DNA of 32,000 bases from Halogeometricum borinquense DSM 11551 (GTDB lineage: Archaea > Halobacteriota > Halobacteria > Halobacteriales > Haloferacaceae): positions 307,011-339,010 of the forward strand of contig NC_014731.1 in assembly GCF_000172995.2 (NCBI RefSeq). Reading direction: 5' to 3'. Of this stretch, positions 3,844 to 28,214 are shown piece after piece (the stretch's first letter is position 1; each line of letters begins with the position of its first letter). The notes beneath the pieces are model-generated. The model worked only from the letters and a program-made list of their open reading frames with translations. It did no database searches and was not told the DNA's origin. The position numbers were made by a program, and so were the translations under genes.

Positions 3844-4114
3844 TAATTGGGAGACACGAACTTCTTTCGGTGTTTGTCTGCAGTTTGAACAGCTATCGAA
3901 GAATGTCGACGACCCCCTTCGACATAGCTGGTTGAGTAATCATTCTGTGGAAAATAGGGCTGACAGAACTGGTTAGAGAACATTGCTGTACGGATACTCC
4001 TAAGCGTCGTGATGCGTGACTAACAACAAGTATGACTTACCCTCAGACGGATTCACTATCACATATGATACTCTGACGAAGTGTTAAATACAACCGTCAT
4101 TTTATTTCGTTTGG

Positions 4115-5035: not shown

Positions 5036-5036
5036 C

Positions 5037-5666: not shown

Positions 5667-5781
5667 GTTCTCCCACTATGGAGGCAGAAAAGCCCGGTCT
5701 AAGATAGTTGGAATGGTTAACCCAGTGAGTCACCCAACAAGCAAACAAAGTGAGTTCCCTAGGACCTAGCCCCGAGGCGAT

Positions 5782-6753: not shown

Positions 6754-6833
6754 CAGGCACCCATAGAGGCGGCTTGTATTTATGTTGTAAACATAATATG
6801 TCCGAATAGAATATACGTATTGATATTGAATAA
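6754..6833. promoter_or_regulatory. AT-rich divergent promoter region between the zinc-ribbon gene and the Rad3-like helicase gene
   Basis: An 80-bp spacer very rich in A/T (ttgtatttatgttgtaaacataatatgtccgaatagaatatacgtattgatattgaataaatg) offers several TATA-like elements on both strands. Confidence 0.4.
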
Positions 6834-9800
6834 ATGCCAATGCCACCGAGCGATGACCAGAATACTGGTGACTCACCCCATGTTCCCCCATGGATATCTG
6901 ACGGAGAGACGGCTGATCCAGACATTATCAACGTTGATTCGAAGCATGATTCGACAGAATCTCCTGACTCACTGACTAGAGGTGTGGGTCCGGTCACTGT
7001 TTCTGACCTCGACAGAACATGGGCACCCTACTTTCGGTACGACTCTGTCTACCAAGACCAGATTGATGCAGTTGATACGTTCCTTGAACTCCTCTCGGAG
7101 AACGGCTATTACGTTTTTGAGGGAGCATGTGGGACTGGCAAGACGTTGGCGGCCGTCACTGGCGGGATTCACGCGATTCGCGACCAGTCGACACTGACGA
7201 AGACCCTTGACAACGTTTCTGGAGACTTTCCTGACTACTCGCGGCTGTTCGTGGTTACGCCACTCAAACAGCAACTCCACCAGTTCGTCCGGGAAATGAA
7301 GGGTATCAATGCGTCCCTTCCTGAAGCTAAAGCTCCCGTCTCAACGGTCGTGATCAGGGGTCGAACTGATATGATGCCGTATGCGTACGTCGACTTCCCA
7401 CCGTTCGATAGACACGGTGTCGGTGAGAAGATGGATGATCTTAGGGAGATGACGCGAAAGCTCATCAAGTTCGATAGCGACATTCCACTGGACTGGCCGG
7501 GGGACATGTCACCACCAGATTTCTCAAAGGTTGACTACAACTGGGAAGAAGCTAGCTTGACAGCGGAAGACCACCGTGAACGGTTTCGATACGATCCCGT
7601 TCGAGCAGAGGCAGTCACCCGAATCGTCAAGGATATGGATCCAAGAGGCGACGAGAGTTTCGATCGCCTGACAGTCAATGGTGTTGAGACACCATATCCG
7701 GACCTCGTTCCTCATACGAACGACGTCGTCGATACAGACGTACTCCAGCGACGAGGGACAGGCCAACTTTCCGTTGGGCTTCAGGGCAAGTTCGATCCGT
7801 TCTATGCCGGGGCGTTCATGGAGGACGGTTTGCCGTTCGACTTCCATCACGCGGACCATCACGTATTCGACCAAGAGACGCTTTTCCAGACAGCGGCCTC
7901 TCGAGGTATCTGTCCACACGAGGCGATGGCGATGCTGGCAGGTCGGGCGGAGGTCGTTCTCGGGAACTACTACCACCTCTTCGACCCCCAGACCCGGCTA
8001 CTGACCGACGATAAAATTGGTCTACTGGACTCGGAAACCATCGTTGCCGTCGACGAGGGGCACCAGATTGAGGAGCGGGTCCGCGATATGCTCTCGATGT
8101 CGCTGGATATCTATACACTTGACCGGGCAATTAACGACATCGAGATCACACGAAATTACGCGGTGGGTGACCTCGCCAAGACGCCTACGCCGAACCTCAA
8201 TACCAGCGACGCAAGATTGGCCGAATCGCTGGCTGACAGCGCACTCGATACGGTCGGAAACTACTCTGTGACTCCTGAAGATCTCGCTGAGGTCGAACAG
8301 CTACTTCGATTCGCCAAGCAAAAGCTGACTGTCTACGGTTCGGACGCCGTGAGCGAGCGCTACCAGGACATCTCGTGGCAGGATGCCGTCGAACGCTGGG
8401 GTGCAGACCCTATCGAGAACGCGCTTTCTGACCCAGAGTGTCCCGACGAGTCCGACGAGTTCCTTACGGACGCGATTGCTGAGGACGACTTTGACACTCG
8501 CTCGTTCTTCAAGGTCTATCCGGCGATGTTAGGGACGAAGTTCGTGTTCGAGGCACTCGAAGAGGCGGGGATCCACGACCGAACCCCACAGGGCGTAGAG
8601 GTTGGGAAGTTCTTCAAACGCTGGGCAGCCGAGGGTACCGTTGAGTACCACCGTGAGGTCGTCCTCGACGACCGGCGAAAGGAGACCATACCGACGGAGT
8701 TCCCCGACTGGGTGAAGGCGTGGACACCGAAATTCCAGCTATTCAACTGCATCCCTCGGGACGAACTCCAAGCGGTGTTCGGAGAACTGGGCGGGGGCGT
8801 CCTCATGAGTGCGACCCTCCAGCCTGAGGAGGTTTATACTGAGGCGGTCGGCATCAACGATATCCCGTTCCCCACGGAAGACGAAGAGGACGACGATGCC
8901 GAGGAGACGGACGTGGTGACGAAGCCCTCTGCGGGAACGAGCCACGATAACTCCGACATCCGTCCAACCGCGTTTGAGCAGTACCCATTGCGATTCCCTC
9001 AGGAGAACCGGGTGTCGCTTATCGCCGACCTCCCGAAGTTCACGAACCGGAATCGAGGGAAACGAACGACTGACCCGCGCCAGATGAAGCCGGTCCGTAA
9101 GCAGTATGCAGATCTTATTGAACAAGCGATTGCCGGCCGTGGGAATATCCTCGTGGCGATGCCGAACTACCGGGAAGCGGAGTGGGCATATAACTATCTC
9201 AAGAAGCAAGGGTCGTCCAAACGGTTTCACCTCGACCAGTCGAGTTCGGCGCTCGAAACCGACGAGACGCTGGAGTCGTTCTTTGCCGACGGTGACGCGG
9301 TCATCTTCACCAGTTCGCGCGGCACGATCACTGAAGGCGTTGACTATGACGGCGAGAAGTTGCACGGATGCGTGGCCGTGGGGATTCCGCTTCTTCCAAC
9401 AAACTCGAAGCGTATTGATGCTGTGATAGAGGCCTATGACGAGCGTATTGGTGTCAAATCGGGATTCGAGACGGCGCTTATGATCCCAGCTGTTCGGAAA
9501 GTTCGCCAGGCGTTCGGCCGGGTGATTCGTGGGTCGGACGAAGCTGGCTTCCGTCTCCTCGTCGATGAGCGCTACGGATCGACAGGTTGGGACGGTGTGA
9601 ACGAGTACCTCTCCGAACAAGAAAGAGAAGAGTTCCAGACTGCAGACCCAGAATTCATCAGCCAGATGATCTCGACGTTTTGGGACGACGTGGACGAACG
9701 GGAACGGGAGCGAGAGGCGGAGGACGACCCGAAGAAGAGTGATATAGAAACGACGAGAACCACGGCGCCGACCGACGATATAGTCCAGAAGTCGGCTGTC

Positions 9801-10112
9801 GGGACGGAAGCAGGCGGTACCAATCAAAAATCCACGACCGAAGTGACGGCAACGAGTGATCCCTCGGCAACGTACTCGAAAATCTACTTTGGAGATGGTT
9901 CAAACCTCTCCAACTGGACTCCCATTAGGACCGATATCGCCGAGAACGAAATCATCCCTATCGTGCGTGAACACACAGTAGATGAAGAGAGCGGTACGGA
10001 GTACATCCAACTCAACTTCGCCAAGGAACTCTCAGTCAGTGGTTGGACAAAAGTCGATGCAGAGATTGTCCATACGCAAATCGAGCCGATAGCAAAACGG
10101 GCGAGGAAGTAG
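6834..10112 (+). CDS. XPD/Rad3/DinG-family SF2 DNA helicase (Fe-S cysteines absent) with C-terminal extension
   Basis: 1092-aa ORF. Motifs are FEGACGTGKTLAAV (Walker A), IVAVDEGHQIEE (DEAH-box variant), ICPHEAMAM...VVLGNYYHLFDP, VLMSATLQP, FTSSRGTITEGVDYDG, QAFGRVIRGSDEAGFRLLVDERY. An acidic linker and a ~90-aa terminal domain follow residue ~920. Confidence 0.9.
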   Translation: MPMPPSDDQNTGDSPHVPPWISDGETADPDIINVDSKHDSTESPDSLTRGVGPVTVSDLDRTWAPYFRYDSVYQDQIDAVDTFLELLSENGYYVFEGACGTGKTLAAVTGGIHAIRDQSTLTKTLDNVSGDFPDYSRLFVVTPLKQQLHQFVREMKGINASLPEAKAPVSTVVIRGRTDMMPYAYVDFPPFDRHGVGEKMDDLREMTRKLIKFDSDIPLDWPGDMSPPDFSKVDYNWEEASLTAEDHRERFRYDPVRAEAVTRIVKDMDPRGDESFDRLTVNGVETPYPDLVPHTNDVVDTDVLQRRGTGQLSVGLQGKFDPFYAGAFMEDGLPFDFHHADHHVFDQETLFQTAASRGICPHEAMAMLAGRAEVVLGNYYHLFDPQTRLLTDDKIGLLDSETIVAVDEGHQIEERVRDMLSMSLDIYTLDRAINDIEITRNYAVGDLAKTPTPNLNTSDARLAESLADSALDTVGNYSVTPEDLAEVEQLLRFAKQKLTVYGSDAVSERYQDISWQDAVERWGADPIENALSDPECPDESDEFLTDAIAEDDFDTRSFFKVYPAMLGTKFVFEALEEAGIHDRTPQGVEVGKFFKRWAAEGTVEYHREVVLDDRRKETIPTEFPDWVKAWTPKFQLFNCIPRDELQAVFGELGGGVLMSATLQPEEVYTEAVGINDIPFPTEDEEDDDAEETDVVTKPSAGTSHDNSDIRPTAFEQYPLRFPQENRVSLIADLPKFTNRNRGKRTTDPRQMKPVRKQYADLIEQAIAGRGNILVAMPNYREAEWAYNYLKKQGSSKRFHLDQSSSALETDETLESFFADGDAVIFTSSRGTITEGVDYDGEKLHGCVAVGIPLLPTNSKRIDAVIEAYDERIGVKSGFETALMIPAVRKVRQAFGRVIRGSDEAGFRLLVDERYGSTGWDGVNEYLSEQEREEFQTADPEFISQMISTFWDDVDEREREREAEDDPKKSDIETTRTTAPTDDIVQKSAVGTEAGGTNQKSTTEVTATSDPSATYSKIYFGDGSNLSNWTPIRTDIAENEIIPIVREHTVDEESGTEYIQLNFAKELSVSGWTKVDAEIVHTQIEPIAKRARK

Positions 10113-10360
10113 CAGATCAGGGTTCACCCATAGAAAAATCCGGTTCTGTAGTTTCGCTAGACCGAGACGCCGCACCTGCAATAAGATAACAGCCAATGAA
10201 CTGCATTGGAGAACTGCAGTTCTGTATTGTTAATCTGTGAAGGGATTAGAACTGATGAACGGGCTTCACGCGGAACGTATCTGGGTCAGCGTTCGGCGTC
10301 GTGGGCACCGTCCGGAAGAAACGCTGTCTGAGAATGAGAGTAGATCGCGAAAGAAGCATA

Positions 10361-11941
10361 CTATCCGTCTTCAGAATCGGTGATTACCTCCGTATATCCG
10401 AGCTTGATGTGGCGCCATTCGAGGTGTTTCGCATCCTGTTCGGCGGCCTTGAGCTTGGCTTGGTTCGCGAGCGCCTCTAGGTCAGCACCCGACCAGCCGT
10501 CAGTATGTTCCGCAAGACGCTTGACATGGTCTTCCGTCAATTTGTGTGGAACGTCCAGTACGGTCAGCTTGAGGATCTCTGTCCGTGCTTTGATGTCGGG
10601 GAGTCCGATCTCGAACTCACAGTCAATACGACCAGGACGAAGGATTGCTTCGTCCATCCCATCCCGCTGGTTCGTCGTCAGCAGCAGGATGAAATCCTGC
10701 TCCTCCTTGGTGAGCGCAGAGAGGAACATATTCGTGACCTTCTGATCCTCCGCGTGTGCGTTCTCACCCCGCGTGCGGTCGCTCAGTAGCTGTTCAGCCT
10801 CGTCGATGAAGACGACGCCGCCGAGGTGCTGCGCTTCCTCGAACAGCCGCTTGATGAGCTGTGGGCTCTTGTTAATGTACTCGTGGGTGAGGTCAGCCTG
10901 CGTCAGTTCGACGAAAGGCCGGTCAAGAGCGTTCGCGATCGCCCGAGCGAATAGCGTCTTCCCCGTCCCCGGCGGGCCTTGGAACAGGAGGCCACGCGAC
11001 GGCTCCACGTCGAACCGATCGTAGCTCTCGCTGTCCGACTGTAGCGGATTGATGACCTGACTGGAGAGTTCCTCCTTGACGTCGTTGTAGCCACCGATGT
11101 CTTCGAACCGAACCTCCGGTGGCTCCTCCCAGGGATACGCGAATGATTCTATCCCGGTGTCCTCATCGTCCTCATCGCCCTCGTCAAGGTACTCTTCGGT
11201 GCTGTCGGCGTCTTCTTCCGTCAAGGCTTCTTCCGCGTTCTGCTGGACTATTTTCACCAATTTCTCTTTGTCAATATCGGGCTCCGGATCACTCTCGGCA
11301 GGATTGATCGAGTGGTTGTGGTTCGATTGCTCCGCCTCCGACTTGTCGTTCGATTCAGTCGGTTGACTGGCCGGCGTGTCAGATCCAGTCTCTCCTACCG
11401 TGGAAGTGGAATCCGTTTGCCACTGGGTTTCACGATTCTTGGACTCAAATTCTGGGGAATACGTCCCGTATGGATGTTCTCCTCCGAAGGTTGCGTTTTC
11501 GTACTTTCTAGATCCGAAGGGGCTCGTATCCAGATACCTCTCAATTGGATTCCCGGTCATATGGGCGACGCATGCTGCGACTGCGGTCGCGATACCCGCG
11601 CTGGCGAACACCTCAGTATTGCCAGTCCCATTGATCCATTCGACAGGGGAATATCCTAGGGTAATCCCGTGGAGAGTAACGATTCCGACCGCGAAAGCGC
11701 CAGCAACGATGCCCGTGTGAATGGGCTCCCAGAGATCCACATGCAGGTGGATCAACGCGCTGAGAATGACCACTACCAATAGTAGCGCCGGAGCGTTTGT
11801 CATGCTGCCGAACGCAACCAGCAGTACGATCTGCAAGGTCATTCTCTTGAAGGGAAGCCGTTCTTCTTCTTCCCAGTAATAAAACCACGTCAGGCTCATC
11901 CAGATGTAGGCGATGGCAAATAGCAGTAAGCTAAGACTCAT
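10361..11941 (-). CDS. membrane-anchored AAA+ ATPase (classic AAA clade, no protease domain)
   Basis: The N-terminal ~135 aa hold 4-5 hydrophobic helices, followed by an acidic linker. The AAA module has GLLFQGPPGTGKTLFARAIANAL (Walker A), GGVVFIDEAEQLL (Walker B) and LLLTTNQRDGMDEAILRPGRIDCEFEIGLPD (sensor/Arg finger). Confidence 0.9.
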   Translation of the reverse strand: MSLSLLLFAIAYIWMSLTWFYYWEEEERLPFKRMTLQIVLLVAFGSMTNAPALLLVVVILSALIHLHVDLWEPIHTGIVAGAFAVGIVTLHGITLGYSPVEWINGTGNTEVFASAGIATAVAACVAHMTGNPIERYLDTSPFGSRKYENATFGGEHPYGTYSPEFESKNRETQWQTDSTSTVGETGSDTPASQPTESNDKSEAEQSNHNHSINPAESDPEPDIDKEKLVKIVQQNAEEALTEEDADSTEEYLDEGDEDDEDTGIESFAYPWEEPPEVRFEDIGGYNDVKEELSSQVINPLQSDSESYDRFDVEPSRGLLFQGPPGTGKTLFARAIANALDRPFVELTQADLTHEYINKSPQLIKRLFEEAQHLGGVVFIDEAEQLLSDRTRGENAHAEDQKVTNMFLSALTKEEQDFILLLTTNQRDGMDEAILRPGRIDCEFEIGLPDIKARTEILKLTVLDVPHKLTEDHVKRLAEHTDGWSGADLEALANQAKLKAAEQDAKHLEWRHIKLGYTEVITDSEDG

Positions 11942-12379
11942 GCTGTGTTCCTCCTTGAGTCGGGTGAACGGGAGAGAAGCCCAGCGCTCGGGCCGCAGGT
12001 GCGGGCACGCGCCGCCGGGAGTCGAGGTGGGCTTTCATCCGTTCTTACTACCTGTTTCTGAGATTTCAGTTATAAAGTTCCGCCTCTGAAAGGTAGATCG
12101 GAACTAGTACGGCGGCACGAACCGATGTTTGGAGAAGGAAGCCGAGAACGCGGCTACGAGTCACCGACTGCGAGTGTAACCGTTCGCAAAGCTGCGTCTT
12201 GGCTAACGCCATACACATCGACGAGGACGTTCGCGAGCTGGTCTCGAGATGGGTGCTCGCCGTTGTGCTCGTCCAGATAGTAGCTGATCGCTGGCCGGAC
12301 GCACCCACAAAGATACTCAGCTACGCCTCTATCTCTCTCCCGCGGAGTTGCGTAGCAAAAACAAACGAACAGCGACCGT

Positions 12380-13732
12380 CTACGCTCGACCGCTATTCCG
12401 CGCTAACTTGCGGCTCTGTCGAGCGATCTTGGAACCAGTTTTGATTCCGCGTTCAGTAAGCTGGCCGGCTTCAAGCAGGTCGGGGATGATGTAATCCTCA
12501 TAGGAGTCGATATCCATCCTGAGATCGTTCAGCCAGCGGGCTGGGAACGTCGAATCAGGCTTATGATCGACGCGGTAGAGACGCCATCCTGCACCAAATC
12601 GTGCTCCGACGATAGTGCCGGCGACAGCGCCGATCGTATCCGCATCACCGCCGTTGTTCACAGCGGAAACGATTGCGTCTTCGGCAGAGTCAGCGGTGAG
12701 GCCGTAGTAGAGCGCGGTCTCAAGCGTATCAAGGACGAATCCACTGTTCTCAAGGTCATCCTCACTGACCTCATCTGGAACCCGCTCCAGCCGTTCTACA
12801 AGTTCTGCGGGTGCGTCATCAGAGAGAGCCGTAAGAGCGACCTGCAGCGGTTCTTCTGAACCGTTGAGTATCGCTGCCAGCGTTAGGTTGAGGACCGCGC
12901 ATCCGTGCGTGCAACGCGGGTCTGCATGCGTGATTTCAGACGACTTCCGGCTCATCTCTTGGAGCATCTGTTGGTCGTCAGGGTACGCAATTGCGAGTGG
13001 AGCGCACCGCATTACACTCCCGTTCCCTGCAGCGTTGTTCGCACCACGAGATTCGAGCGTTTTGTGCCCGGCTTCACTAGCCGGGACACCATTCTGAAGC
13101 CACGTGATGGAACTAATCGTCGTCACGCCGACGTCGAATGGGTCCGACTCGAACCACTCCACCAACTGTTCAGCGTACCGGGCAGCGTTGAACTCACCGT
13201 GCGCAAGGAGGTTCGCAACTAGATAGAGTGCAAGGTTCGTATCGTCAGTAACCGTCCCTGCCGGCTGGTTGTGGCTACCGTCCCCGAAGAACTTGGTAAC
13301 GGTCCCGTGTTCCGCTTCGATTTCACTCGAGGACATGAACTCAACAGGACGCCCGAGCGCATCGCCACATGCGAGACCGAGGATGATACCGATAGAACGG
13401 TCGAGTCGCGTAATCAGTTCTTGGTCGTCGACGTCCCGCCCGATCGTGTTGTCTGCAGTTGCTTCCAGCCCCCACGTGCGCCGGATCCGCTCGGCCTGGA
13501 GAGAGAGTTGGCGACTGGACTGGTGCTCAGACGGCGTTTCGAGGAGGTCGAACCCGGTCAGGTCGGTGTACCTCGTGACGAGCTCGTAGTCGGACTTGAA
13601 GGGATGAAGTTCGTAGAAGTGACCTTCCGTCGGTAACGGCTTATCCAGGTCGCTGTATGGGGCGTGATCGTAGTTGTTCCCCTTAGTAAACGGATTCTCC
13701 GGAGGCATTGTAACATCCGACTCATCTTCCAT
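12380..13732 (-). CDS. ADP-ribosylglycohydrolase (ARH/DraG family) with ~115-aa N-terminal extension
   Basis: Motifs are GLACGDALGRPVEF, TDDTNLALYL, GNGSVMRCAPLAIAY and NGGDADTIGAVAGTIVGARFG. The start is uncertain: MEDESD at 13732, or 13759, or 13708. Confidence 0.85.
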   Translation of the reverse strand: MEDESDVTMPPENPFTKGNNYDHAPYSDLDKPLPTEGHFYELHPFKSDYELVTRYTDLTGFDLLETPSEHQSSRQLSLQAERIRRTWGLEATADNTIGRDVDDQELITRLDRSIGIILGLACGDALGRPVEFMSSSEIEAEHGTVTKFFGDGSHNQPAGTVTDDTNLALYLVANLLAHGEFNAARYAEQLVEWFESDPFDVGVTTISSITWLQNGVPASEAGHKTLESRGANNAAGNGSVMRCAPLAIAYPDDQQMLQEMSRKSSEITHADPRCTHGCAVLNLTLAAILNGSEEPLQVALTALSDDAPAELVERLERVPDEVSEDDLENSGFVLDTLETALYYGLTADSAEDAIVSAVNNGGDADTIGAVAGTIVGARFGAGWRLYRVDHKPDSTFPARWLNDLRMDIDSYEDYIIPDLLEAGQLTERGIKTGSKIARQSRKLARNSGRA

Positions 13733-13894
13733 ACCGAATCGGTAGATGACACTACACAATAATTACCTAGCTCATCACGGGGATCACGGACTGCAGCCGT
13801 TGGCTCCCCTGACTGAGAGGAATGCTCTGATGGCATCGGGATGTCAAGCGTCGAGATTGGGGAGTGTGCGGTTGGGACACATGCCCCAGTCTAA

Positions 13895-14080
13895 TTATGC
13901 CTCGCGTTGCAAGAGGAGACTCACTGTCGCGCCACGCTTGTCAGTAATCGGAGCGACGACATCCCAGCCATCTGCCCCGAGTTCGTTCAGTCGCCCAACC
14001 GGCGGGTCAACGTTGCCACCGAGTCCAGCCACCATGACGCTGCTGTCGACTTCGACAGTCCGATATTCGTAAGAGGGCAT
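13895..14080 (-). CDS. DUF4177 domain protein
   Basis: MPSYEYRTVEVD...LNELGADGWDVVAPITDKRGATVSLLLQRE has the size and the Y-E-Y / GW-(D/E)-(V/L)-V pattern of DUF4177. Confidence 0.65.
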   Translation of the reverse strand: MPSYEYRTVEVDSSVMVAGLGGNVDPPVGRLNELGADGWDVVAPITDKRGATVSLLLQREA

Positions 14081-14236
14081 GCGCATGCTCTGATGACGAC
14101 CAGTAGCAAACCTCTTGTGATTTTCGCAGTGGTGGAGAGGTGCTGCTGCACCACTGATCGGTACTCCGCGTTCACGCGGAGGAGGATGTCAACTGGCTCG
14201 GGTACCGAAGGGCGATATGCAGTCGTTCGCTCAACC

Positions 14237-14953
14237 ATGGGGACTATCAAAAGAGAGTATGATGTACCAGTATCGAGTTCAAAAGAGGCTCATGACGTGA
14301 CTCGTAAACCGCTCCCCACCGAACATCTCTCACCACTCGCTACGCTCGTGGATGAAGTACTTGCATGCGTTGGGTACGAGATGGCGGCCGCCACCGACAT
14401 CATCGACGACGCTGTCCCCGGCTACGGCGGCCTCTTCGACCCTGCGACGACCCCCGGAGAGTTGCGACACGCGCTCGACAGCGTGCTGGCATCAGACCTC
14501 AGCCGGCCTCCCGCCCCTGAGTCGACGGACGACTCGTTCATCCTTTACGTCGATGGCGGTTCACGCGGCAACCCCGGCCCAGCGGGTGCAGGCGCGGTCA
14601 TCATGGACGCCACCGAAACCGAACTCGCCCGGCTCGGCCGTCCTGTCGGCTCCCGGACGGGGAACAACACCGCCGAGTACGTTGCCCTCCAACTGGGACT
14701 TTCCGAACTACTGGCTCGCTACGACCCCCGGAGCCTAGAAGTACGCATTGACTCGATGACGGTCATCAGGGACGCCTGGGATGACGACGACCCGACAGAG
14801 CCAGGCGTCGAGACGTACAGCGAGGCGATCGCCACGGCACTCTTGAGCGTTCCAGAACACCGGTACACGCATCTCGCGGATAGTGACCCAAACCCAGCCG
14901 ATGCGCTGGCGACAGTCGGGGCCGATATCGCAGCATTAGGACCCGGATCGTGA
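14237..14953 (+). CDS. rnhA: ribonuclease HI (type 1 RNase H) with N-terminal extension
   Basis: FILYVDGGSRGNPGPAGAGAVIMD, GNNTAEYVALQLGLSEL and VRIDSMTVI supply the DEDD-type RNase H core. The start is ambiguous (14237, 14186 or 14093). The ORF-track start at 13907 overlaps the opposite-strand DUF4177 gene and was rejected. Confidence 0.85.
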   Translation: MGTIKREYDVPVSSSKEAHDVTRKPLPTEHLSPLATLVDEVLACVGYEMAAATDIIDDAVPGYGGLFDPATTPGELRHALDSVLASDLSRPPAPESTDDSFILYVDGGSRGNPGPAGAGAVIMDATETELARLGRPVGSRTGNNTAEYVALQLGLSELLARYDPRSLEVRIDSMTVIRDAWDDDDPTEPGVETYSEAIATALLSVPEHRYTHLADSDPNPADALATVGADIAALGPGS

Positions 14954-15060
14954 ACCGCCTCGCTTATCTGTAGAGCTTCATCGCCCGAGACCCCAGACCG
15001 AGCGCATCGTCAAGACGAACGATTGGTATCCCGTCAGCCGCAATGTACGGACACACTCGA

Positions 15061-15774
15061 ATGGACTCGCTACTCACGATCGATGACGAGCTATGCACTG
15101 GAACCATCGTCGACCGGCCCAATCGGTTCGTCGTCCGCGTTCGGTTCGAAGACGAGCCAGAACGTGTCTTCCTCGGGGACCCTGGCGCGCTCGAAGGGAC
15201 GATCGAACCGGGACACGAGATTCTCTGTGCACCAGTCGACGATCCGGAGCGGGCGACAGACTACGACGCTATCGCCGTCCATGTTGACACCGTGTACGTG
15301 AGCGTTCGACCGGCGTTAGCGAACGACCTCTTCGAGCGCGCACTCGGCCGCAACGCGATTCCTGCGTTCGACGGATACACCTGCCGAAAACGAGAACCTG
15401 CGCTGCCCGACCACGGCCGGACGGATTTCCGTCTCGAGACACCGAGCGGCAACACCGCCTCCGTCGAAATCAAATCCTGCACCCACGTCGAAGACCGCAT
15501 CGCCAAGTTTCCAGATCGGCAGACTGAGCGTGGTCGGCGTCACCTCCGAAGCCTCGAAGCGCTCTGTGAAGACGGCCACGAGACGCATGTCGTGTTCGTG
15601 GTGCAGCGACCTGACGTCGAACGCTTCCGACCCTACCGAGATGTCGATCCGGAGTTCGCCGAACTACTCAGCCAGGTGCAGGAAACTGGGGTGGGCGTAC
15701 ACGCGATAACCACCTCGTTTAAGCCGCCCCACTACGTGCTTCGGAAAGACGATCTGCCCGTGGACATCGACTGA
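15061..15774 (+). CDS. sfsA: SfsA-family protein (sugar fermentation stimulation protein homolog, nuclease fold)
   Basis: GTIVDRPNRFVVRV at the N-terminus, then RTDFRLE...ASVEIKSCTHVED...FPDRQTERGRRHLRSL, characteristic of SfsA. The start could also be 15043. Confidence 0.85.
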   Translation: MDSLLTIDDELCTGTIVDRPNRFVVRVRFEDEPERVFLGDPGALEGTIEPGHEILCAPVDDPERATDYDAIAVHVDTVYVSVRPALANDLFERALGRNAIPAFDGYTCRKREPALPDHGRTDFRLETPSGNTASVEIKSCTHVEDRIAKFPDRQTERGRRHLRSLEALCEDGHETHVVFVVQRPDVERFRPYRDVDPEFAELLSQVQETGVGVHAITTSFKPPHYVLRKDDLPVDID

Positions 15775-15822
15775 CAGGCGTCAGCTCAAGGATTGAATAA
15801 CGGCCAGTCCGTATGTGTTCGT

Positions 15823-16155
15823 ATGGCAAAGCGATTCGTTCGAGCCCGGCCGAAGCGCGATCAACTCCCGGACCTGCGGGAGCGACTCGAGAGCGGTGAG
15901 ATCGAAGCGATGGAGCCGTTCGGCCGTGCGATGACGAAGGCGTTAGAGAACGCGCGATTCGACCCGGCGAGTGGAGAGGCGATTTGGATCGAGGAGGATT
16001 ACTGCGTTCCACCACTCGCGATGGAACGGGCAGAAGTCCTTGACGACTACTTCACAGAGATCACGATCGTCGAGGAGGATGTCGACGAAGCCGCCGGGTG
16101 GCAACAGATAGACGACCTGCCGGGGTTGTGGGAGCAGATACTCGACCAAGCCTAA
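15823..16155 (+). CDS. acidic hypothetical protein
   Basis: MAKRFVRARPKRDQLPDLRERLESGEIEAMEPFG... has GC-rich, halophile-type acidic composition and no recognisable motif. Confidence 0.55.
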   Translation: MAKRFVRARPKRDQLPDLRERLESGEIEAMEPFGRAMTKALENARFDPASGEAIWIEEDYCVPPLAMERAEVLDDYFTEITIVEEDVDEAAGWQQIDDLPGLWEQILDQA

Positions 16156-16338
16156 CGATGGTCGGACTGAGGCGTTTGCTATTCCGTCGGCAGACTGCGT
16201 CTGGCGGGCACTCAGAACGCAGATCGGTCTGGTGACGCCCTGTAGGGCGGGGAGAATGTCGAATGCAGCACCGACAACCCGTGTCCAACCACCGGGATAA
16301 TTGAGGCATTATATGACACAGGCACGTTGGTCACAATA

Positions 16339-16820
16339 ATGAGAACCGTTGAGTCAGCTGATATCAACGATTCCCGCCCGCTCGAGAAACTTCGAGCGGT
16401 TCTACAGGAACACTCGGTACAGTGTGCACCCTCTTCGGTTCCCACGCCACCGGAACGACACATCCAACAAGTGATACCGACATTGCAGTAGAGCTTGAGA
16501 CGACCGACCGTGAGGACCCCGCGTACAACGACGCATTCTTCGGTCTCAGTGCGGATCTGAGCGATGCGCTCGGAACGGATGACGTATACCTCGTCGACAT
16601 CCACACACTCTCACCAAGCGTTGCTGCGTCGGTGTTCGAAGCGGGAGTTCTACGTATCGGCGACGTAGCTCATGCTGAAGACCTTCGTCAACGTGTGACC
16701 AATACAGACGCTCCAGACCAGTCCCCACGCGAACGTTTCGACACTGCACTTGCAAAGATTGATGACCATCTCGGTGGGTCTGGCGTCACGGCAACAGATG
16801 GCAACGACCGTGAGCGATGA
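16339..16820 (+). pseudogene. minimal nucleotidyltransferase (MNT/Pol-beta superfamily), apparently frameshifted near 16415-16425
   Basis: From 16422 the frame reads CTLFGSHATGTTHPTSDTDIAVEL (GS-x9-D-x-D NTase motif). The expected N-terminal helix (MRTVESADINDSRPLEKLRAVLQEHSVQ) is encoded from ATG 16339 in a different frame. Confidence 0.6.
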
Positions 16821-16857
16821 CAGATTACATGTTGTTAGGGCGTCGTGTTAGGGGTAC

Positions 16858-17130
16858 ATGGAGCAGAATAGCAAGTATGGTGGGTGGGGAAAAATCTCAG
16901 ACATAGGTGTTGCTGTGTTTTGCTTGCTGGGAAGCGTTTTCATATTATTTATGTCGCACGCGCTAGCTAGTGCTGGAATCTTGACCATTGCAGGGATCGC
17001 TCTATTGCGACTTCGATCGCAGGATGTGCGTGACTGGACCGACGAGCACACAAGACTGTTCCAGTTGATTTTGGTCCTAATCGGTCTAGTTATGCTAGTT
17101 GATGTGTATCCTGTGGAAGCGCTTCCTTGA
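16858..17130 (+). CDS. small membrane protein (3 predicted TM helices)
   Basis: A 90-aa ORF in a short AT-richer stretch. Its hydrophobic segments are IGVAVFCLLGSVFILFM, ASAGILTIAGIALL and LFQLILVLIGLVMLV. Confidence 0.4.
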   Translation: MEQNSKYGGWGKISDIGVAVFCLLGSVFILFMSHALASAGILTIAGIALLRLRSQDVRDWTDEHTRLFQLILVLIGLVMLVDVYPVEALP

Positions 17131-17139
17131 GATTGTTAT

Positions 17140-17773
17140 CTACGAGTAGTGGATGAGTTGCTTGGTCCCCGAGGTCGCAAAGGAGACGGCGAGGACGACG
17201 AACGGCACGAGTAGCGCGCCGACGGCTCAGGAGAAGGCGACGACCGAAACCGCAGTGGCCGCCGACGCCAACGCGAGATAGACGCCGTAGGTGAGCGCCC
17301 GACGCCGAAGGGAACGGCGGATCGCATCGCCGCCGCCGTCGGAGAGGGAAAAGCGGGGTCTTCTCGGTCCCGCGGATGGTCGGCGTCCCCGCATCGACGG
17401 ACAGCTCGCCGTGGACCGTCAGCCGGGCCCCCTCGGGGACGGCCTTCGACAGGAAGTAGTCGTTCTTCAGGTCGATGTCCGGGTCATCGACGACGACGCC
17501 TCGGAGCCGTTCGAGCGGCAGTTCCGTCGAGTGATCAGCCAGCTGGACGTACGGCGAATTCCTGAGGTAGACGTGCCCGTCCGGCTCGGGGGGAAGCCGA
17601 CCGGCCGTACCGCCGCCAGCCGGTCGGCGTCGTGGACGTCTCGCAGCCACCCCGGGTCGACCCGGAGCTTCCCGTTCTCGGTCGCGACGGTGAACGATCC
17701 GAACTCGACGCCGGAGGCGAACCGCACGACCGTCGCTCGAAAGGTTTCGGCCAGCTCTTCTCCGTTGGCTCAT
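17140..17773 (-). pseudogene. decayed gene for a membrane-anchored protein (at least 2 frameshifts and an in-frame TGA)
   Basis: Protein-like translation is only obtained by frame hopping. The segments are (M/V)RFASGVEFGSFTVATENGKLRVDPGWLRDVHDADRLAAV, then EPDGHVYLRNSPYVQLADHSTELPLERLRGVVVDDPDIDLKNDYFLSKAVPEGARLTVHGELSVDAGTPTIRGTEKTP, then SLSDGGGDAIRRSLRRRALTYGVYLALASAATAVSVVAFS*AVGALLVPFVVLAVSFATSGTKQLIHYS*. The first shift is at a G6 run (17588-17593) and the TGA is at 17227-17229. Confidence 0.6.
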
Positions 17774-23290: not shown

Positions 23291-23516
23291 TCAGGATAGC
23301 AAATGAACATCACCACCAGCCCTACGACCTACGGATACATCAAAGTCTCTGCCCAAGAAGAAGACCATGACAGCGTCTGAGAGTACTTCCTTTCCGACAT
23401 CACCGAGAGTCAGACTGAGTCTGTCTCCCACGACGAGGAATTCAAAAACGACAAGGTGACAGTCTCGATCACGATGGAGAACGTCGCCCTCTGCGACCGG
23501 ACAAATTCTAATTCGG

Positions 23517-23919
23517 CTGGAATTCTGAATGGAGGCTGGTAGATTCCACCCTTACAAAAATGCTATTGTAATGGTGTAATAGATAACACGATTGACGTCC
23601 ACGTATCCATAATCTGGAGTGATCAATTACCCTCGCTGGTACGCCACAAGCCCAGAACACGACGGTCGGGTCTTAGGGGGAACTACATTAGTGGACACAC
23701 GGTATCGGTGACAAATTTCGATTCGATTCTCCACTACATTTTTGAATTCTATCCTAACGAAGAGCAAGATTGCTCGTATATATCGGACTTATACCACCAT
23801 ACAGAGGCATTATAGTAGTAGATATGTTATTTTAATATTAAATATCATCCAAGTATGGTGGTACAACCAGAGAACACATCTAGGAACGCACTACTGCCTA
23901 CATCTGCCAATTCCCAACT
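23517..23919. repeat. right arm of the long imperfect inverted repeat (partner 18307-18720)
   Basis: Reverse complement aligns to 18307-18720. Identical blocks are 23517-23539, 23697-23720 and 23632-23665 (33/34), plus the AT palindrome tttaatattaaa at 23831-23842. Confidence 0.85.
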
Positions 23920-23966
23920 CTTGCTGATTGGATTGGTGGGAGCCATAGTGATTCGGGTGACTGGCG

Positions 23967-24253
23967 TATGATTCCATTATACGAAGGAATATATCTTGAA
24001 GAGGGTGAGCGTGGTGAGATAGAATTTTTTCAGAGACGGTGAATCAACCGAGACCAACGATTTCCCGCGGAGATTTGAGGATCCCAAAAAGAACGCTATT
24101 GTCCAATATCTCTCAACCACTGAACCGACAGAAAGTGGGCGAGAGCGACGAGCAATGGTCTTTGCCCCAAAAAGAGATAGGACCGAAGAAATTGCTGAAA
24201 TGCTTGCTGACCATATTAGAGATGACTGGTCTTCTACGGAGTGGTTTGCGTGA
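23967..24253 (+). pseudogene. gene remnant with helicase-C-terminal-like segment, frameshifted at a T6 run
   Basis: MIPLYEGIYLEEGERGEIEFF is followed, in the next frame, by RDGESTETNDFPRRFEDPKKNAIVQYLSTTEPTESGRERRAMVFAPKRDRTEEIAEMLADHIRDDWSSTEWFA*. The two frames join if one T of the 24025-24030 run is removed. RAMVFAPKRDRTEEIAEML resembles the start of a helicase RecA2 domain. Confidence 0.3.
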
Positions 24254-24313
24254 GTCTCGCGCTCTCGAAGAGTCGAGAGACACCGTTGAAGCAACCGTAC
24301 GGAATCTCCACGA

Positions 24314-24871
24314 ATGCACTTCCTGCCGAAATATCTAGGAGATGCCGTCGTCGTGACTGATCCCGAACCCATCCATAAGGGTAGCATCGAGATCACGGCA
24401 CTTAGAAAACTCGTGTACCGGCTCGCTCCAGCAGACCGCGAGTACGATCACGTTGCTGAAGCTGCGTCTGCCGTCGTTGAACGATTCCAGAGCCTCGAAG
24501 AGGAAAGTGAGCAGCTCAGGGATAGACTCGACAAACTTGGCGACATTGGTGAACGGAAGACATCGAAAGAGGAGAAGATAGCGGCTATCGTCACCTTCGC
24601 AGCCCGAAAGAAAGGGGAGAAACCCGCTATCACGGTCAAGCCAAAGACGATCAAAGGCCTAATCGATTTCTCTCGTCGCTATGCCTACGATTTAGTTGAC
24701 GATATGCACGATGAGTATGAGTGGGCACACGACCCGACACAAGTCGATCAGTACGGGATGCTAGAAAAAGATACCTCGCAGAAGGGCATTCTCATCGACT
24801 TCGACGGAGTTCACGGAGACCCCGTACCTGTGAACAAGTTCACCACTGGAACAGCCGAACAGGGCCGCTGA
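24314..24871 (+). CDS. acidic hypothetical protein (possibly the tail of the degraded upstream gene)
   Basis: 185-aa ORF with halophile-like composition and a coiled-coil-like stretch (VERFQSLEEESEQLRDRLDKLGD). It is in the same frame as the 24023-24253 remnant and separated from it by two TGA codons (24251, 24287). Confidence 0.5.
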   Translation: MHFLPKYLGDAVVVTDPEPIHKGSIEITALRKLVYRLAPADREYDHVAEAASAVVERFQSLEEESEQLRDRLDKLGDIGERKTSKEEKIAAIVTFAARKKGEKPAITVKPKTIKGLIDFSRRYAYDLVDDMHDEYEWAHDPTQVDQYGMLEKDTSQKGILIDFDGVHGDPVPVNKFTTGTAEQGR

Positions 24872-25365
24872 CTGATGGTACCGTTACGAGACAAACCTCC
24901 GCCGCGTAAGCCAAGTTTAGAATTCGTGAGGCAGGTTGTGGAAGGAAGGAAGTGTTAGTGGTAGGTAGCTCAGCGGAAGCGCAGCAGAGCGTCCCAAATT
25001 GACCCCCTCAGCGCTGCTCACCCACGTGGTGAACACGTTCACATGAATGATCACAGCAAGATACAGAAATCGTAGCACTTCCCAGGTTCCAAACTAGCGC
25101 CGAGAGCTACGAAATCTTCCTGCTCCGGCATGGTATCTGGCGATAGACCGAGGTAAACGTGGTAAGCCACTTCTTGAGCAGGCTTGGCGTCGAGACATAA
25201 TATATCAGTTAGATAGGGAAGACTGCTGAGGTCTGCACATTCTGTTGCTTGGGGAAACGATACAAGCTATGAAACAATACTCATATGAGTAAGAACCCTG
25301 CAGGTCAAATTCAGCTTTATTATCCCTGATAGGGGAATCGCACTACGATTGTGTCTTGCTTATAT

Positions 25366-25596
25366 ATGGAGGCGCTTGCGTTCGCAAGCGTCTCCGCGAT
25401 TCTCATCGAGATTACGAGGGCGAACGGCTCCGAGGTGCGCCCCATGTCCGCTCTGAAGGAGCTGGGGACAGATACACCAGATGACGTTGTCGACCAAATC
25501 CGGCTGGACACCATCGACAACATTGGTTCATTTTTTAGAAACTCGAACTCGTCGGCGGGCTCTGTGCAGAGCGTTCCGTCACGTTTCGATCCGTAG
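25366..25596 (+). CDS. small acidic hypothetical protein whose stop codon lies inside the orphan CRISPR repeat
   Basis: MEALAFASVSAILIEITRANGSEVRPMSALKELGTDTPDDVVDQIRLDTIDNIGSFF... The opposite-strand ORF (25320-25616) has non-halophilic composition. No family was recognised. Confidence 0.3.
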   Translation: MEALAFASVSAILIEITRANGSEVRPMSALKELGTDTPDDVVDQIRLDTIDNIGSFFRNSNSSAGSVQSVPSRFDP

Positions 25597-25617
25597 TGGG
25601 TTCTCGTCGGCTGCAAC
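25583..25617 (-). CRISPR. orphan degenerate CRISPR repeat (type A)
   Basis: gtttcgatccgtagtgggttctcgtcggctgcaac matches the 37-nt unit at 26506-26542 with 2 substitutions and 2 single-nt deletions. The minus-strand reading begins GTTGCAGCCGACGAG; the canonical ATTGAAAC end is degraded here (ATCGAAAC). Confidence 0.5.
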
Positions 25618-25692
25618 GCGAGCCGCCGTCGGCGTTAGAACACGGGAGGAAACACGCCAACAGTCCCGCTGACAGTAGCGAAGACGAGTAGC

Positions 25693-26172
25693 CTACGGTT
25701 TGTCTAAGAGAAGCTCATTCAGGCTGTCTGTTAGCGATTCAGCCTCACCAAGTGTAGACCGGGAACGGGGCTCAGATTCCTCAAAGACTGTGTCCTCCTG
25801 CATTACGGACTCGAGATCGACATCGAGATCGACATCTGCGTCAGTAGCATCTATTTCTTTCCAGTTGGGGCCGTCTTCCTCACGGGGGAGTTCAACCAAT
25901 TCGTCGTGGACTTTCTCGACGTGGTGGTCGTCGAGAAATAGAAAATCGGCACCGCTCGACTCTGCAAGCATCACCCGGCTTACGGTACCCCAGACTTCGT
26001 ATGTTCCAGGTTCGTCAGGGATCGCGATTTCATCATCGGCGCTCAGTTCGAGCGGGTGGTCTCGGTGCGGGCGGTCAACTGCGATCGTGTCCCCCTCATC
26101 CCGAAGGACACGAATACGGACGCTATCGCCCGATTCAGGGGCGGAACGTCCGTCGACGAGTTTGTGTTCCAT
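25693..26172 (-). CDS. very acidic hypothetical protein located between two direct CRISPR repeats
   Basis: 159-aa ORF rich in D and E (e.g. DATDADVDLDVDLESVMQEDTVFEESE). The overlapping plus-strand 259-aa ORF is Ser/Arg-rich, as expected for the antisense of an acidic gene. Confidence 0.65.
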   Translation of the reverse strand: MEHKLVDGRSAPESGDSVRIRVLRDEGDTIAVDRPHRDHPLELSADDEIAIPDEPGTYEVWGTVSRVMLAESSGADFLFLDDHHVEKVHDELVELPREEDGPNWKEIDATDADVDLDVDLESVMQEDTVFEESEPRSRSTLGEAESLTDSLNELLLDKP

Positions 26173-26505
26173 ACCTGAAAGAAGAGAGTACGTTCATTTG
26201 AATCTGTTCACCCGACCATCGTCCAGATGCACACGGTGGTTTTTATCGTCCCGGTGTAGTGAGACTATGAATACAGAGAAGACTGCTTCAGGAGGAGAAA
26301 CCGGTGGAGAATCCGGGAGACTATTCGGGCAGCTGCCAGCAGAGGTGAGCGGATGGGAGCAGCATCAGCGCACGCCGGCTGACAGTCTCTTCAAGTATTG
26401 GAAGAAGGGGTCGACGCACATCGTGGAGCCTACGAGCAGGTCGTCGCGAAGGAGTTGCGTGATGGCGACATCCGCGTGACGAAACGTACCTACGACCAGT
26501 TCAAC

Positions 26506-26595
26506 GTTTCAATCCCGTAGTGAGTTTCTCGTCGGCTGCAACTCCATGAGCTTTGCATAGATGGTAGCGGGGACGTGAGTTTCAATCCCGTAGTG
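26506..26595 (-). CRISPR. CRISPR remnant: full 37-nt repeat A, 36-nt spacer, 17-nt partial repeat A
   Basis: Repeat 26506-26542 read on the minus strand is GTTGCAGCCGACGAGAAACTCACTACGGGATTGAAAC, with the canonical ATTGAAAC 3' end. The spacer is 26543-26578. Positions 26579-26595 repeat the last 17 nt of the unit exactly. Confidence 0.6.
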
Positions 26596-26632
26596 GTCGC
26601 AGTGCGGAAGAAACCCAACACGGGATTGAAAC
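26596..26632 (+). CRISPR. single CRISPR repeat of a related variant (type B) in opposite orientation
   Basis: GTCGCAGTGCGGAAGAAACCCAACACGGGATTGAAAC is 37 nt and matches the minus-strand reading of repeat A at 27/37 positions. Shared parts include GT-GCAG at the 5' end, GAAAC in the middle and ACGGGATTGAAAC at the 3' end. Confidence 0.5.
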
Positions 26633-27005
26633 TCCGCAGAGGATCCCCGCGAATCTCTTCGCACTGGGGGTTACAGTTCAACGAACACATTAGGAAAGCA
26701 GCTAATCCGGATTGGGATTATTCGTTTCACGCCATCTGGGAGCCTCTCCCCCTGTACGAGGGCGCCTATCACCATTAGCGACCGGAACACGCTACCACTC
26801 AAAAATAGGCGTCTCAGAGGACGACGACACCAATCCAATACGACCCCTGCAAATCACTGCTACGAAGACCTGATTACTGAGAATTGTTGATAGCTCTGTG
26901 TCACTTAATCTCCGGAGCGTCCTATTTCGCGTCGGAGAAACGAAACACGTCAATGAGAAGTACGTGGGCGCTAAGGGCTGAGAAGAGAAGTAAGCGAGTC
27001 CGAAG

Positions 27006-28214
27006 CTAGATGTCGCCGTTGATGATATCTGCGACGCGCTGGCGGTCGAAGAGCTTCGTGTCGCTGGTCACGTCCCCGAAGACATCCGGATACAGCTGCT
27101 TCGCGGCCCGCTCTGTCAGGAAGAGGTTGTGAATTGGTCCCTGGCGGAGGTAGCCACCGCGATAAACGCGGTTATTCTGCACAGCCGTCAATTCGCTGCC
27201 AACCGGATGATCCTTCATATAGGCAAGGACCGTATCGCGGAACTCTGACGCCGACTTCTGTTCGTGACCCCTGATCAGGAGCACGTCGGGGTCGACTTCG
27301 AGGAGGTTCTCGTAGTCGAGTTCGCCGCGATTATCGGTACTAAGGTTCTCGATGTCGGTTCCGGCGAGAGCGTCCGCCACGCCGAGATCGTTCCACTGCT
27401 TCTTGCTCGTCCCCTTGTCGGTCAGGCGGTACGGCGAGAATGTGTCAGGCTCGTTGGTCCCCTCAAACGTGAGCATCACGTTCGGGCGCTCGCCGGACGG
27501 CGGCATTCGCGACTGGATTTCGGTGATGAACTCATCGTGGTACTGCTTGAACGCCTCGTACCGATCGCGCTCCTGGAACAACTCGGCAACCTTCTCGAAG
27601 GCCTCGTATAGCGTGTAGAACCGGTAGTCATGCCAGCTGTCGGATCGTCGGAAGATCATGTTCCCGAGGAACGGCCCGACCTGCTCGCTAATCTCCGCGA
27701 TGTCCTCGTCCCTCCAATCGAACCAGTTCCGCAGCATCCCGGTGTCGATAATGTGGACGTCACTATCCATTTCGTAGAACAGTTCCTTCGACATCCCGGC
27801 TTCGACCAAGTCGTTCTTTTCGATCCGGTCTTTGTCAACACTCACACCGGGTAACTCCTCGTAGACGTACGTGTAGTACTCGCCGGGCTGCCCAATGCCG
27901 ATCATGCTGTCCGCATGACCCAGTGCAACACCCATGTCGGCGTAGTCACCGCCGTAGGGCACCCACTGCTCCGGGATCGAGTCGAACGTGACCTCTCCCA
28001 TAGGAGCCATCGTTACCGAGTAGCTGACATCCTCGGTCGCCGTCTCCGACTCGGTGCCGGTCGCCGTCACCGTTGATGTTTCGGTCCCCCCGGTGTCGTC
28101 GGGCGCAAACAGACCAGCGCAGCCAGCGAGAGCGCTGCTGCCGATGACTGCACCGCCGTATTTCATGTAGTCACGTCGCGTCGGTGCCTTGTGCCCACCG
28201 CTATCTTCGGACAT
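27006..28214 (-). CDS. ABC transporter substrate-binding lipoprotein (iron-siderophore/cobalamin-type periplasmic binding protein)
   Basis: MSEDSGGHKAPTRRDYMKYGGAVIGSSALAGC has a Tat motif and a lipobox, followed by a Thr-rich linker. The length and conserved stretches (e.g. PDVLLIRG) fit class III SBPs. Start placed at the ATG at 28214. Confidence 0.8.
   Translation of the reverse strand: MSEDSGGHKAPTRRDYMKYGGAVIGSSALAGCAGLFAPDDTGGTETSTVTATGTESETATEDVSYSVTMAPMGEVTFDSIPEQWVPYGGDYADMGVALGHADSMIGIGQPGEYYTYVYEELPGVSVDKDRIEKNDLVEAGMSKELFYEMDSDVHIIDTGMLRNWFDWRDEDIAEISEQVGPFLGNMIFRRSDSWHDYRFYTLYEAFEKVAELFQERDRYEAFKQYHDEFITEIQSRMPPSGERPNVMLTFEGTNEPDTFSPYRLTDKGTSKKQWNDLGVADALAGTDIENLSTDNRGELDYENLLEVDPDVLLIRGHEQKSASEFRDTVLAYMKDHPVGSELTAVQNNRVYRGGYLRQGPIHNLFLTERAAKQLYPDVFGDVTSDTKLFDRQRVADIINGDI

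Follow-up and report, generated by a model that had tools for sequence, protein, structure and literature searches.

The window analysed here is the last 32 kb of a 339,010-bp megaplasmid of the haloarchaeon Halogeometricum borinquense DSM 11551, whose genome comprises six replicons (3,944,467 bp). In this window, two direct repeats of a decayed type I-D CRISPR array enclose 888 bp of DNA in the place of a spacer of about 36 nucleotides (nt). An earlier note on this DNA, made from the letters alone, had drawn attention to the interval. We found that it is a random chunk of foreign, probably plasmid- or island-type DNA in a spacer position, collinear with a gene cluster in Halosimplex pelagicum and carrying a motif that resembles a protospacer adjacent motif (PAM) at the distance of one spacer from one end. 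As the explanation that we favour, though tentatively, the 888 bp could be a kilobase pseudo-spacer produced by mis-processed integration by Cas1-Cas2-Cas4.

The left repeat (R1; 25583-25617, 35 nt, minus strand) and the right repeat (R2; 26506-26542, 37 nt, minus strand, GTTGCAGCCG...ATTGAAAC) are in direct orientation with the 888 bp between them. When the two were aligned, 33 of 37 positions agreed, and R1 differed by two 1-nt deletions and two substitutions. An exact 17-mer is common to R1 and R2 (genome-wide BLAST, E 0.004), and the local-alignment score of R1 against the repeat was 54, compared with 28 for the best of 20 shuffles. The end of R1, ...ATCGAAAC, resembles the degenerate last repeat of a living array in another haloarchaeal genome (G017). 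To the right of R2, an ordinary spacer (26543-26578, 36 nt, minus strand) is followed by a partial copy of the same A-type repeat (its 3' 17 nt; 26579-26595, minus strand), which is an exact copy of 26506-26522. The partial repeat lies head-to-head with a complete repeat of a second type, B (26596-26632, 37 nt, plus strand), the sole remnant of a downstream (cas2-side) array as judged from its similarity to the G017 array.

No further copy of the A or B repeat was found in the 3.94-Mb genome, including 23500-27100; the locus retains two complete or nearly complete A repeats, the partial one, and a single B repeat. There is one canonical repeat-spacer unit (R2, the 36-nt spacer and the partial repeat), and no periodicity over at least three units. 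The locus is a remnant and not a working array. The layout is identical in a second assembly, GCA_004150395.1, with 99.5% identity across 11.8 kb, so that an assembly artefact was ruled out. An uninterrupted array in a related strain, for which the earlier note had suggested looking, was not found: the sole close strain was identical in layout, and the other five genomes of the genus gave no match to the region. The 36-nt spacer had no protospacer in phages, plasmids, IMG/VR, its own genome or the I-D loci that we fetched. A likeness of 14/19 nt between this spacer and the 3' end of the open reading frame (ORF) within the insert was dropped, since by our own estimate its 8-nt exact core is expected about 0.8 times by chance.

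To which CRISPR subtype the repeats belong was established by comparison with living loci. In a DNA search of 40 relatives, the B repeat alone was matched, in the four-repeat array of G017, to whose repeats it is 85% identical. That array is directly downstream of a complete I-D operon, cas10d-csc2-csc1-cas3'-cas4-cas1d-cas2. Csc2 was located in 36 of 401 Halobacteria genomes, and 20 strong Csc2 loci were retrieved for comparison of their layout. The 21 living haloarchaeal I-D loci consist of a short upstream array on the opposite strand, the cas operon, and a longer downstream array on the same strand. Each side has its own repeat variant, all variants end in GGGATTGAAAC, and the two variants resemble A and B of the window. 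The reverse complement of type A, GTTGCAGCCG...ACGGGATTGAAAC, resembles the upstream-array variant of G164, with matches in the first 10 nt and the 3' half, and the B repeat resembles the downstream-array variant. The likeness of A to the upstream variant indicated that A reads on the minus strand, that R1 is the degenerate terminal repeat of the former upstream array, and that the ORF in the insert is sense to the array. The differences between the flanking repeats are consistent with R1 being a terminal repeat. We concluded that the repeats belong to the haloarchaeal type I-D family.

The window shares with canonical haloarchaeal I-D loci (G017, G100 and G164) the 37-nt repeats of the form GT[CT]GC...GGGATTGAAAC, the two opposed variants, the 36-nt spacer length and the degenerate last repeat. 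It differs from them in that leaders and cas genes are absent and that, of the two spacer positions left, one is filled by 888 bp. Among 400 Halobacteria genomes, no living array was found whose repeat matches A with up to 3 mismatches, and among plasmids the only occurrence found was a solo repeat in Halocatena. No match to the Cas1 (PF01867) or Cas2 (PF09827) families was found in this 99.99%-complete genome, nor any tblastn match to eight I-D Cas proteins, in agreement with the absence of cas genes described by Lynch et al. 2012 (PMC3404096). The place where the leader would be expected is taken by the inverted B repeat. The locus is a former unit of upstream array, cas operon and downstream array that has lost its cas operon and its two leaders by deletion, and today it is a fossil without function for the organism.

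The insert (25618-26505, minus strand) is a collinear fragment of a foreign three-gene cluster, which aligned as a single BLASTN high-scoring segment pair (window 25626-26503) to the chromosome of Halosimplex pelagicum (CP058909) with 70.4% identity. It begins with a 3' remnant of an HNH endonuclease gene (25618-25691, plus strand, about 25 codons and the stop), which is similar in alignments to the C-terminal end of the HNH protein (PF01844) of Halosimplex as well as to a remnant in Halomicrobium. This is followed by an intact gene for an acidic protein of 159 amino acids (aa) (25693-26172, minus strand; homologues of about 155 aa) and by the divergent intergenic region, with the promoter, of the donor gene pair (26173-26266), which was kept whole and contains blocks identical to Halosimplex. 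The insert ends with the first 80 codons of a 277-aa gene (26267-26505, plus strand), which is frameshifted and truncated by R2. The matching stretch of Halosimplex runs from the last ~25 HNH codons through the entire 155-aa gene, which is on the opposite strand, and the divergent intergenic region to codon 80 of the 277-aa gene. In the window, the fragment of the 277-aa gene starts with ATG at 26267, has a 1-nt deletion at 26424/26425 and ends at 26505; tblastn recovered aa 1-53 and aa 54-80 of the 277-aa protein in two frames, up to 26505. The rest of the 277-aa gene and of the HNH gene is nowhere in this genome. Since the repeat borders cut both neighbouring genes of the donor, the insert is an arbitrary fragment and not a cassette.

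Much of what the earlier note had read from the letters was confirmed by this analysis. The interval of 888 bp between the direct type-A repeats is as it described, and so is the very acidic 159-aa ORF (isoelectric point 4.15), which is sense to the repeats because both read on the minus strand. The further protein-like stretch that it saw running into the right repeat is real, being the N-terminal 80 codons of the 277-aa family from the ATG at 26267. A small ORF to the left of R1 does end at a TAG inside the repeat, and we take this as chance because the repeat itself carries ccgTAG. Among the readings that it had proposed, array decay with captured DNA agrees with the type I-D repeats, the foreign segment between them and the later decay of the locus.

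The divergent pair of 155-aa and 277-aa genes recurs in the metagenome contig LKMJ01000058.1, whose neighbouring genes in common with Halosimplex encode a Zn-ribbon protein, 146-aa and 289-aa proteins, a DEAD helicase and an N6/N4 methylase. The Halosimplex copy sits in an island with HNH, methylase and helicase genes, and a copy on the Halomicrobium plasmid pHmuk01 adjoins VapBC and Orc1/Cdc6. On pHmuk01 of Halomicrobium mukohataei (L009 6473-6583), the 155-aa gene has only the last 37 HNH codons next to it and lacks its 277-aa partner. The surroundings of the small gene are prone to recombination in other replicons too.

The junctions were inspected to see how precisely the foreign DNA meets the repeats. 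At the right junction, ...CAGTTCAAC of the insert is followed directly by GTTTCAAT of R2. At the corresponding position the homologues continue with CAT, after ...GATTCAAC in the metagenome contig and after ...AATTCAGT in Halosimplex (the two read ...TTCAAC and ...TTCAGT before CAT). Donor homology therefore reaches the last base before R2. On the left, the homology can be followed with certainty from 25626 onwards, whereas an identity of 70% leaves the first 8 nt ambiguous. There was no microhomology at the joints that explains them.

Three simple origins of such an insert were ruled out. If the DNA had been inserted into an existing 36-nt spacer, about 36 nt would be left unaccounted for, and there are at most 8. 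An insertion sequence or transposon does not fit, as the insert lacks both a transposase domain and terminal inverted repeats, and the sole duplication is the CRISPR repeat itself. Integration of a whole plasmid by a single crossover between spacer and protospacer, followed by internal deletion, predicts a permuted insert with duplicated ends; the insert is a single collinear segment and its ends are not copies of each other.

If an integrase of the type I-D system had handled one end of the insert normally, a PAM would lie at the distance of one spacer from a repeat. The PAM of other type I-D systems, GTN, was not borne out by haloarchaeal protospacers, and an empirical motif was used instead. 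It was derived from five distinct spacers of the 80-repeat I-D array of G100 (L056 11645-17404), which matched 100% to the Halorubrum tailed viruses OP630574-OP630576. The 5' flanks of the protospacers were ACGGCG, GAGGCG, AGGGCG, GCGGCA and CCTGCA, which give the PAM as 5'-GC[G/A], usually GGCR. Searching additional arrays against the phage collection gave no further protospacers. The viruses are from Deep Lake, and in the G100 array two spacers occur twice (positions 3 and 29, and 9 and 35).

The trailer-side 37 nt of the insert (25618-25654, minus strand) resemble a canonical protospacer, with a PAM-like GGCG at 25655-25658 inside the insert. In array orientation the sequence reads TTGGCG, and the distance from the motif to R1 is exactly 37 nt. 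GGCR occurs 5 times in the 888 nt. If the five usual spacer lengths are all allowed, one would lie at such a distance with a chance of about 0.03, and for plain GCR the figure rises to about 0.12. The 834 haloarchaeal I-D spacers are 31-48 nt long, with a mode of 36.

That the insert meets the repeats flush on the right and within 8 nt on the left, with a PAM at the distance of one spacer from the older repeat, points to the CRISPR machinery rather than random recombination; that an integrase made the joints is our inference. At the time, the megaplasmid would have carried a working type I-D system, and Cas1-Cas2 with Cas4 would have captured plasmid- or island-type DNA. The PAM-distal end would have been measured and joined beside the old repeat as normal, leaving the 37-nt stretch of protospacer length next to R1. 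The PAM side may have been left uncut by Cas4, so that the far end of the ~0.9-kb fragment would have been joined at the other border of the repeat. The repeat would have been duplicated in the process, giving a repeat, an arbitrary fragment that cuts genes, and a repeat. Later, the leader-cas-leader centre would have been deleted and both arrays would have shrunk. A PAM kept inside the insert at one spacer length from the older repeat is what a failure of Cas4 cutting after a correct first integration predicts.

Several points weigh against this account. The main counter-evidence came from living arrays: among about 830 spacers in 39 living haloarchaeal I-D arrays (a set in which one locus is duplicated within a genome), none was longer than 48 nt, and there were no long inserts. 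Apparent spacers of 136 nt and 180 nt in L060 were runs of N. As none of these arrays holds a long spacer, the event is very rare or tied to the decay of the locus. Cas1-Cas2 complexes measure spacer length, and they are not known to us to join DNA of kilobase size in vivo. Because R1 differs from R2 at 4 positions, the duplication of the repeat is not directly visible. With no relative of the donor closer than 70% identity, there is uncertainty about the flanks of the donor and about the 8 nt at the left end. The PAM is based on 5 protospacers from one array in another genus. In addition, the locus clearly underwent other rearrangements.

These rearrangements bear on an explanation in which no integrase took part. 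During decay without cas genes, end joining or replication slippage would have brought the fragment in by non-specific illegitimate recombination, and later deletions would have ended at the repeat borders by chance. The locus is indeed scrambled, with the cas operon and the leaders gone, a partial repeat fused and the B array reduced to one repeat; the wider region is rich in gene fragments, and the lack of long spacers in living arrays fits an event linked to decay. The joints, however, fall within 0-1 nt and 8 nt of the borders in a 73-nt unit, for which we roughly estimate a chance of ~0.5%. The PAM at spacer distance would have to be a coincidence as well, and microhomology at the joints is lacking. 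We regard this explanation as improbable.

The R2 end of the insert is where mis-processed integration and a second recombination route make different predictions. Two neighbouring spacers could have come from one element, ~0.9 kb apart and in the same strand and order, and a double crossover or gene conversion guided by them could have put the donor stretch in the place of spacer-repeat-spacer. The ends would then be the old spacers, and therefore flush, so that both flush ends and the collinearity are explained. Priming frequently yields adjacent spacers from a single element. The route predicts a canonical PAM and a 37-nt unit at the R1 end, and one was observed. It also requires a PAM in the donor before the spacer on the R2 side, but in both homologues ATG is at -3..-1, a conserved His codon, and not GC[G/A]. 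In locus L018, GCA occurs two bases further out from the R2-side end. Two crossovers in homologies of 36-37 bp and a lucky arrangement of spacers would be needed, and no strain with the two-spacer precursor is known. The lack of a PAM at the R2 end mildly favours mis-processed integration, and we consider recombination through two spacers unlikely, though it remains a serious candidate. Such recombination had been put forward for the pseudo-spacer SiL-E1 (PMC3718332), to which we return below.

We also analyzed the gene that the insert carries. The product of the 159-aa ORF has 45 Asp and Glu residues. About 15 homologues of ~155 aa were found, with 52-98% identity; the family is rare and patchy, since only 5 of the 401 genomes of Halobacteria contain it and 1.84 billion cluster representatives include no more than 19 clusters of it. 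The ratio of nonsynonymous to synonymous substitution rates in the family, 0.12-0.23, indicated that the ORF is a real gene. In the AlphaFold model, residues 1-100 are all-beta, with predicted local distance difference test scores of ~80-93, and residues 105-159 form a disordered acidic tail that ends in a conserved NELLL motif. The best structural matches were nearly all OB folds (RPA, Ten1, Teb1 and the AspRS N-domain), all weak (Foldseek E at least 0.02). Matches in VIA were weak too, with Z at most 4.8 and root-mean-square deviations of 3.3-3.7 over 83-84 residues, and Atlas pointed weakly to TRAM/DUF7513 with a score of 0.78-0.87. The product is probably an OB/TRAM-like, nucleic-acid-binding acidic protein of a rare haloarchaeal mobile-element family. 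That it serves the DNA metabolism of the donor element much as single-stranded DNA-binding proteins do would be no more than a reasonable guess. At an Arg that is nearly invariant and is kept by the other strain, the type strain carries the substitution R61W, a hint of relaxed constraint. Within the part of the ORF that encodes the acidic tail, 12 nt are duplicated in tandem at 25811-25836 (TCGAGATCGACA x2.2); in the other strain this place is shorter by 6 nt, so that the length of the Asp-rich tail varies by slippage.

The same gene was the basis of a reading in the earlier note that did not hold, namely that the repeats flank a cargo gene, such as an anti-CRISPR. Under this reading, the repeats would express, regulate or mobilise the 159-aa gene as anti-CRISPR, mini-array cargo or under a CreTA-like control. 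The gene is intact and sense to the repeats, its promoter is kept, and it is acidic like some DNA-mimic inhibitors. Acidity is, however, normal for haloarchaeal proteins, the type strain has the R61W substitution, and the genes on either side are cut through at the repeat borders. Neither a transposase nor terminal inverted repeats are present, and the genome has kept neither cas genes nor a Cas6 that could act on the repeats. Searches of the ORF against Pfam, PHROG, PADLOC and anti-CRISPR or defence families gave no match, and the spacer has no protospacer. Other members of the family stand without repeats: no CRISPR repeats were found beside the homologues whose contexts were read (those other than P0003-P0006 and P0009), and no virus match to the family was found. 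Of the homologues that the earlier note had proposed to look up, some are on a plasmid (pHmuk01) or in an island, and none was found in viruses or next to CRISPR arrays. It had named housekeeping homologues away from CRISPR, together with flanking repeats of other origin, as the outcome against its reading. The homologues are indeed found away from CRISPR loci, but as genes of plasmids or islands with a patchy distribution rather than as housekeeping genes, and the repeats are genuine CRISPR repeats. The reading of a functional repeat-flanked cargo is already largely refuted, and we hold it to be hardly credible. The 159-aa gene is a passenger, complete by chance with its own promoter.

The one published parallel to a kilobase pseudo-spacer that we found is SiL-E1, in CRISPR_2 of Sulfolobus islandicus LAL14/1, which is ~2 kb long and contains five ORFs (Jaubert et al. 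2013, Open Biol 3:130010; PMC3718332); no later paper was found. Both faulty processing by the Cas machinery and recombination of two spacers were proposed for it (PMC3718332). In SiL-E1 and in the window alike, a gene-bearing piece of foreign DNA, from a plasmid in SiL-E1, lies between two direct CRISPR repeats. In SiL-E1, donor homology extends up to the repeats without unaccounted bases; in the window the right end is likewise flush, and 8 nt are ambiguous at the left. The two differ in several respects. The repeats of SiL-E1 are perfect and belong to a living crenarchaeal array, whereas R1 is degenerate and the window holds a cas-less haloarchaeal I-D remnant. SiL-E1 is 82% identical to known pING1-type plasmids, and the donor of the window insert is known at 70% identity only. 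A further feature of the window insert in this comparison is its PAM-like motif, which is separated from the repeat on the trailer side by the length of one spacer.

Enzymes related to Cas1 do move long DNA. Casposases, which are Cas1 homologues, join the ends of kilobase DNA with a fixed stagger, so that the target is duplicated, and Cas1-Cas2 makes off-target neo-CRISPR integrations in the manner of a Cas1-type integrase. Unlike casposons, the window has no terminal inverted repeats, no family B polymerase and no casposase gene. It differs from both casposon and neo-CRISPR insertions in having as its duplicated unit a genuine repeat of a CRISPR array and not an ectopic site.

As far as can be documented, this is the first kilobase pseudo-spacer in haloarchaea and in type I-D, with the detail of a PAM at ruler distance. 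With it, the one example published so far is joined by another from a different archaeal lineage and a different subtype (I-D, with Cas4). The molecular ruler of Cas1-Cas2 is believed to set the length of spacers, and natural exceptions reveal how the ruler and PAM processing can fail. Such exceptions also tie CRISPR adaptation to its casposon ancestry, in which the same kind of enzyme moves kilobase DNA. The locus demonstrates, moreover, that a complete gene able to be expressed can on rare occasions enter a CRISPR array.

The head-to-head joint (26579-26632) is the second odd feature of the locus. Here the inverted 3' 17 nt of the A repeat are flush against the first base of the complete B repeat, and this base is the former leader-repeat border of the downstream array. 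The two arms of the joint form a 20-nt hairpin with 90% complementarity. The joint marks a deletion of ~11-12 kb that took out the cas operon together with the two leaders.

A second cas-less I-D remnant with a like architecture was found on the Halocatena salina plasmid NZ_CP096021.1 (L019 1404-1468 and 3303-3555). There, an inverted 31-nt partial repeat of one variant lies at most 1 nt from the start of the solo repeat of the other variant. The joint is followed by ~1.83 kb with two annotated coding sequences and then by a four-repeat array that seemingly keeps its own leader-like upstream sequence. This remnant suggests that loss of the cas operon by this route recurs.

A broader claim would cover both features, namely that all odd joints of the locus, the 888-bp insert and the head-to-head joint included, are footprints of the I-D integrase acting on long unprocessed DNA. 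For the insert, the PAM-distal end of the prespacer would have been trimmed by the ruler to 37 nt from the GGCG PAM and integrated normally, and Cas4 would have missed the PAM side. The head-to-head joint is at the border where the integrase makes its first attack, and it could stem from an intramolecular integration that excised the system's own cas operon. The near-identical joint of Halocatena salina (L019 1404-1468) hints that such self-destruction recurs. We judge this joint claim to be quite improbable.

Outside of the locus, the genome contains an orphan array of ~6 repeats on the chromosome (G000:C1:838759-839089), whose repeat contains CCACAAGGGTTCGTCTGT and, read in reverse, looks like the type I-B repeats of haloarchaea. 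The one CRISPR described in the H. borinquense genome (PMC3404096, PMC3035229) is probably this array. The left half of the window (265-17773) encodes a 1192-aa UvrD-type helicase, a 1092-aa DEAD_2/Helicase_C_2 protein and an AAA ATPase, together with an ADP-ribosylglycohydrolase, an RNase H-like protein and SfsA, and it could be a defence or repair island. In the set of I-D loci, contig G291:C1 holds two copies of an I-D locus ~60 kb apart (L064 and L065; ~550-570 kb and 610-630 kb), whose downstream arrays are equal in repeat, repeat number (41) and length.

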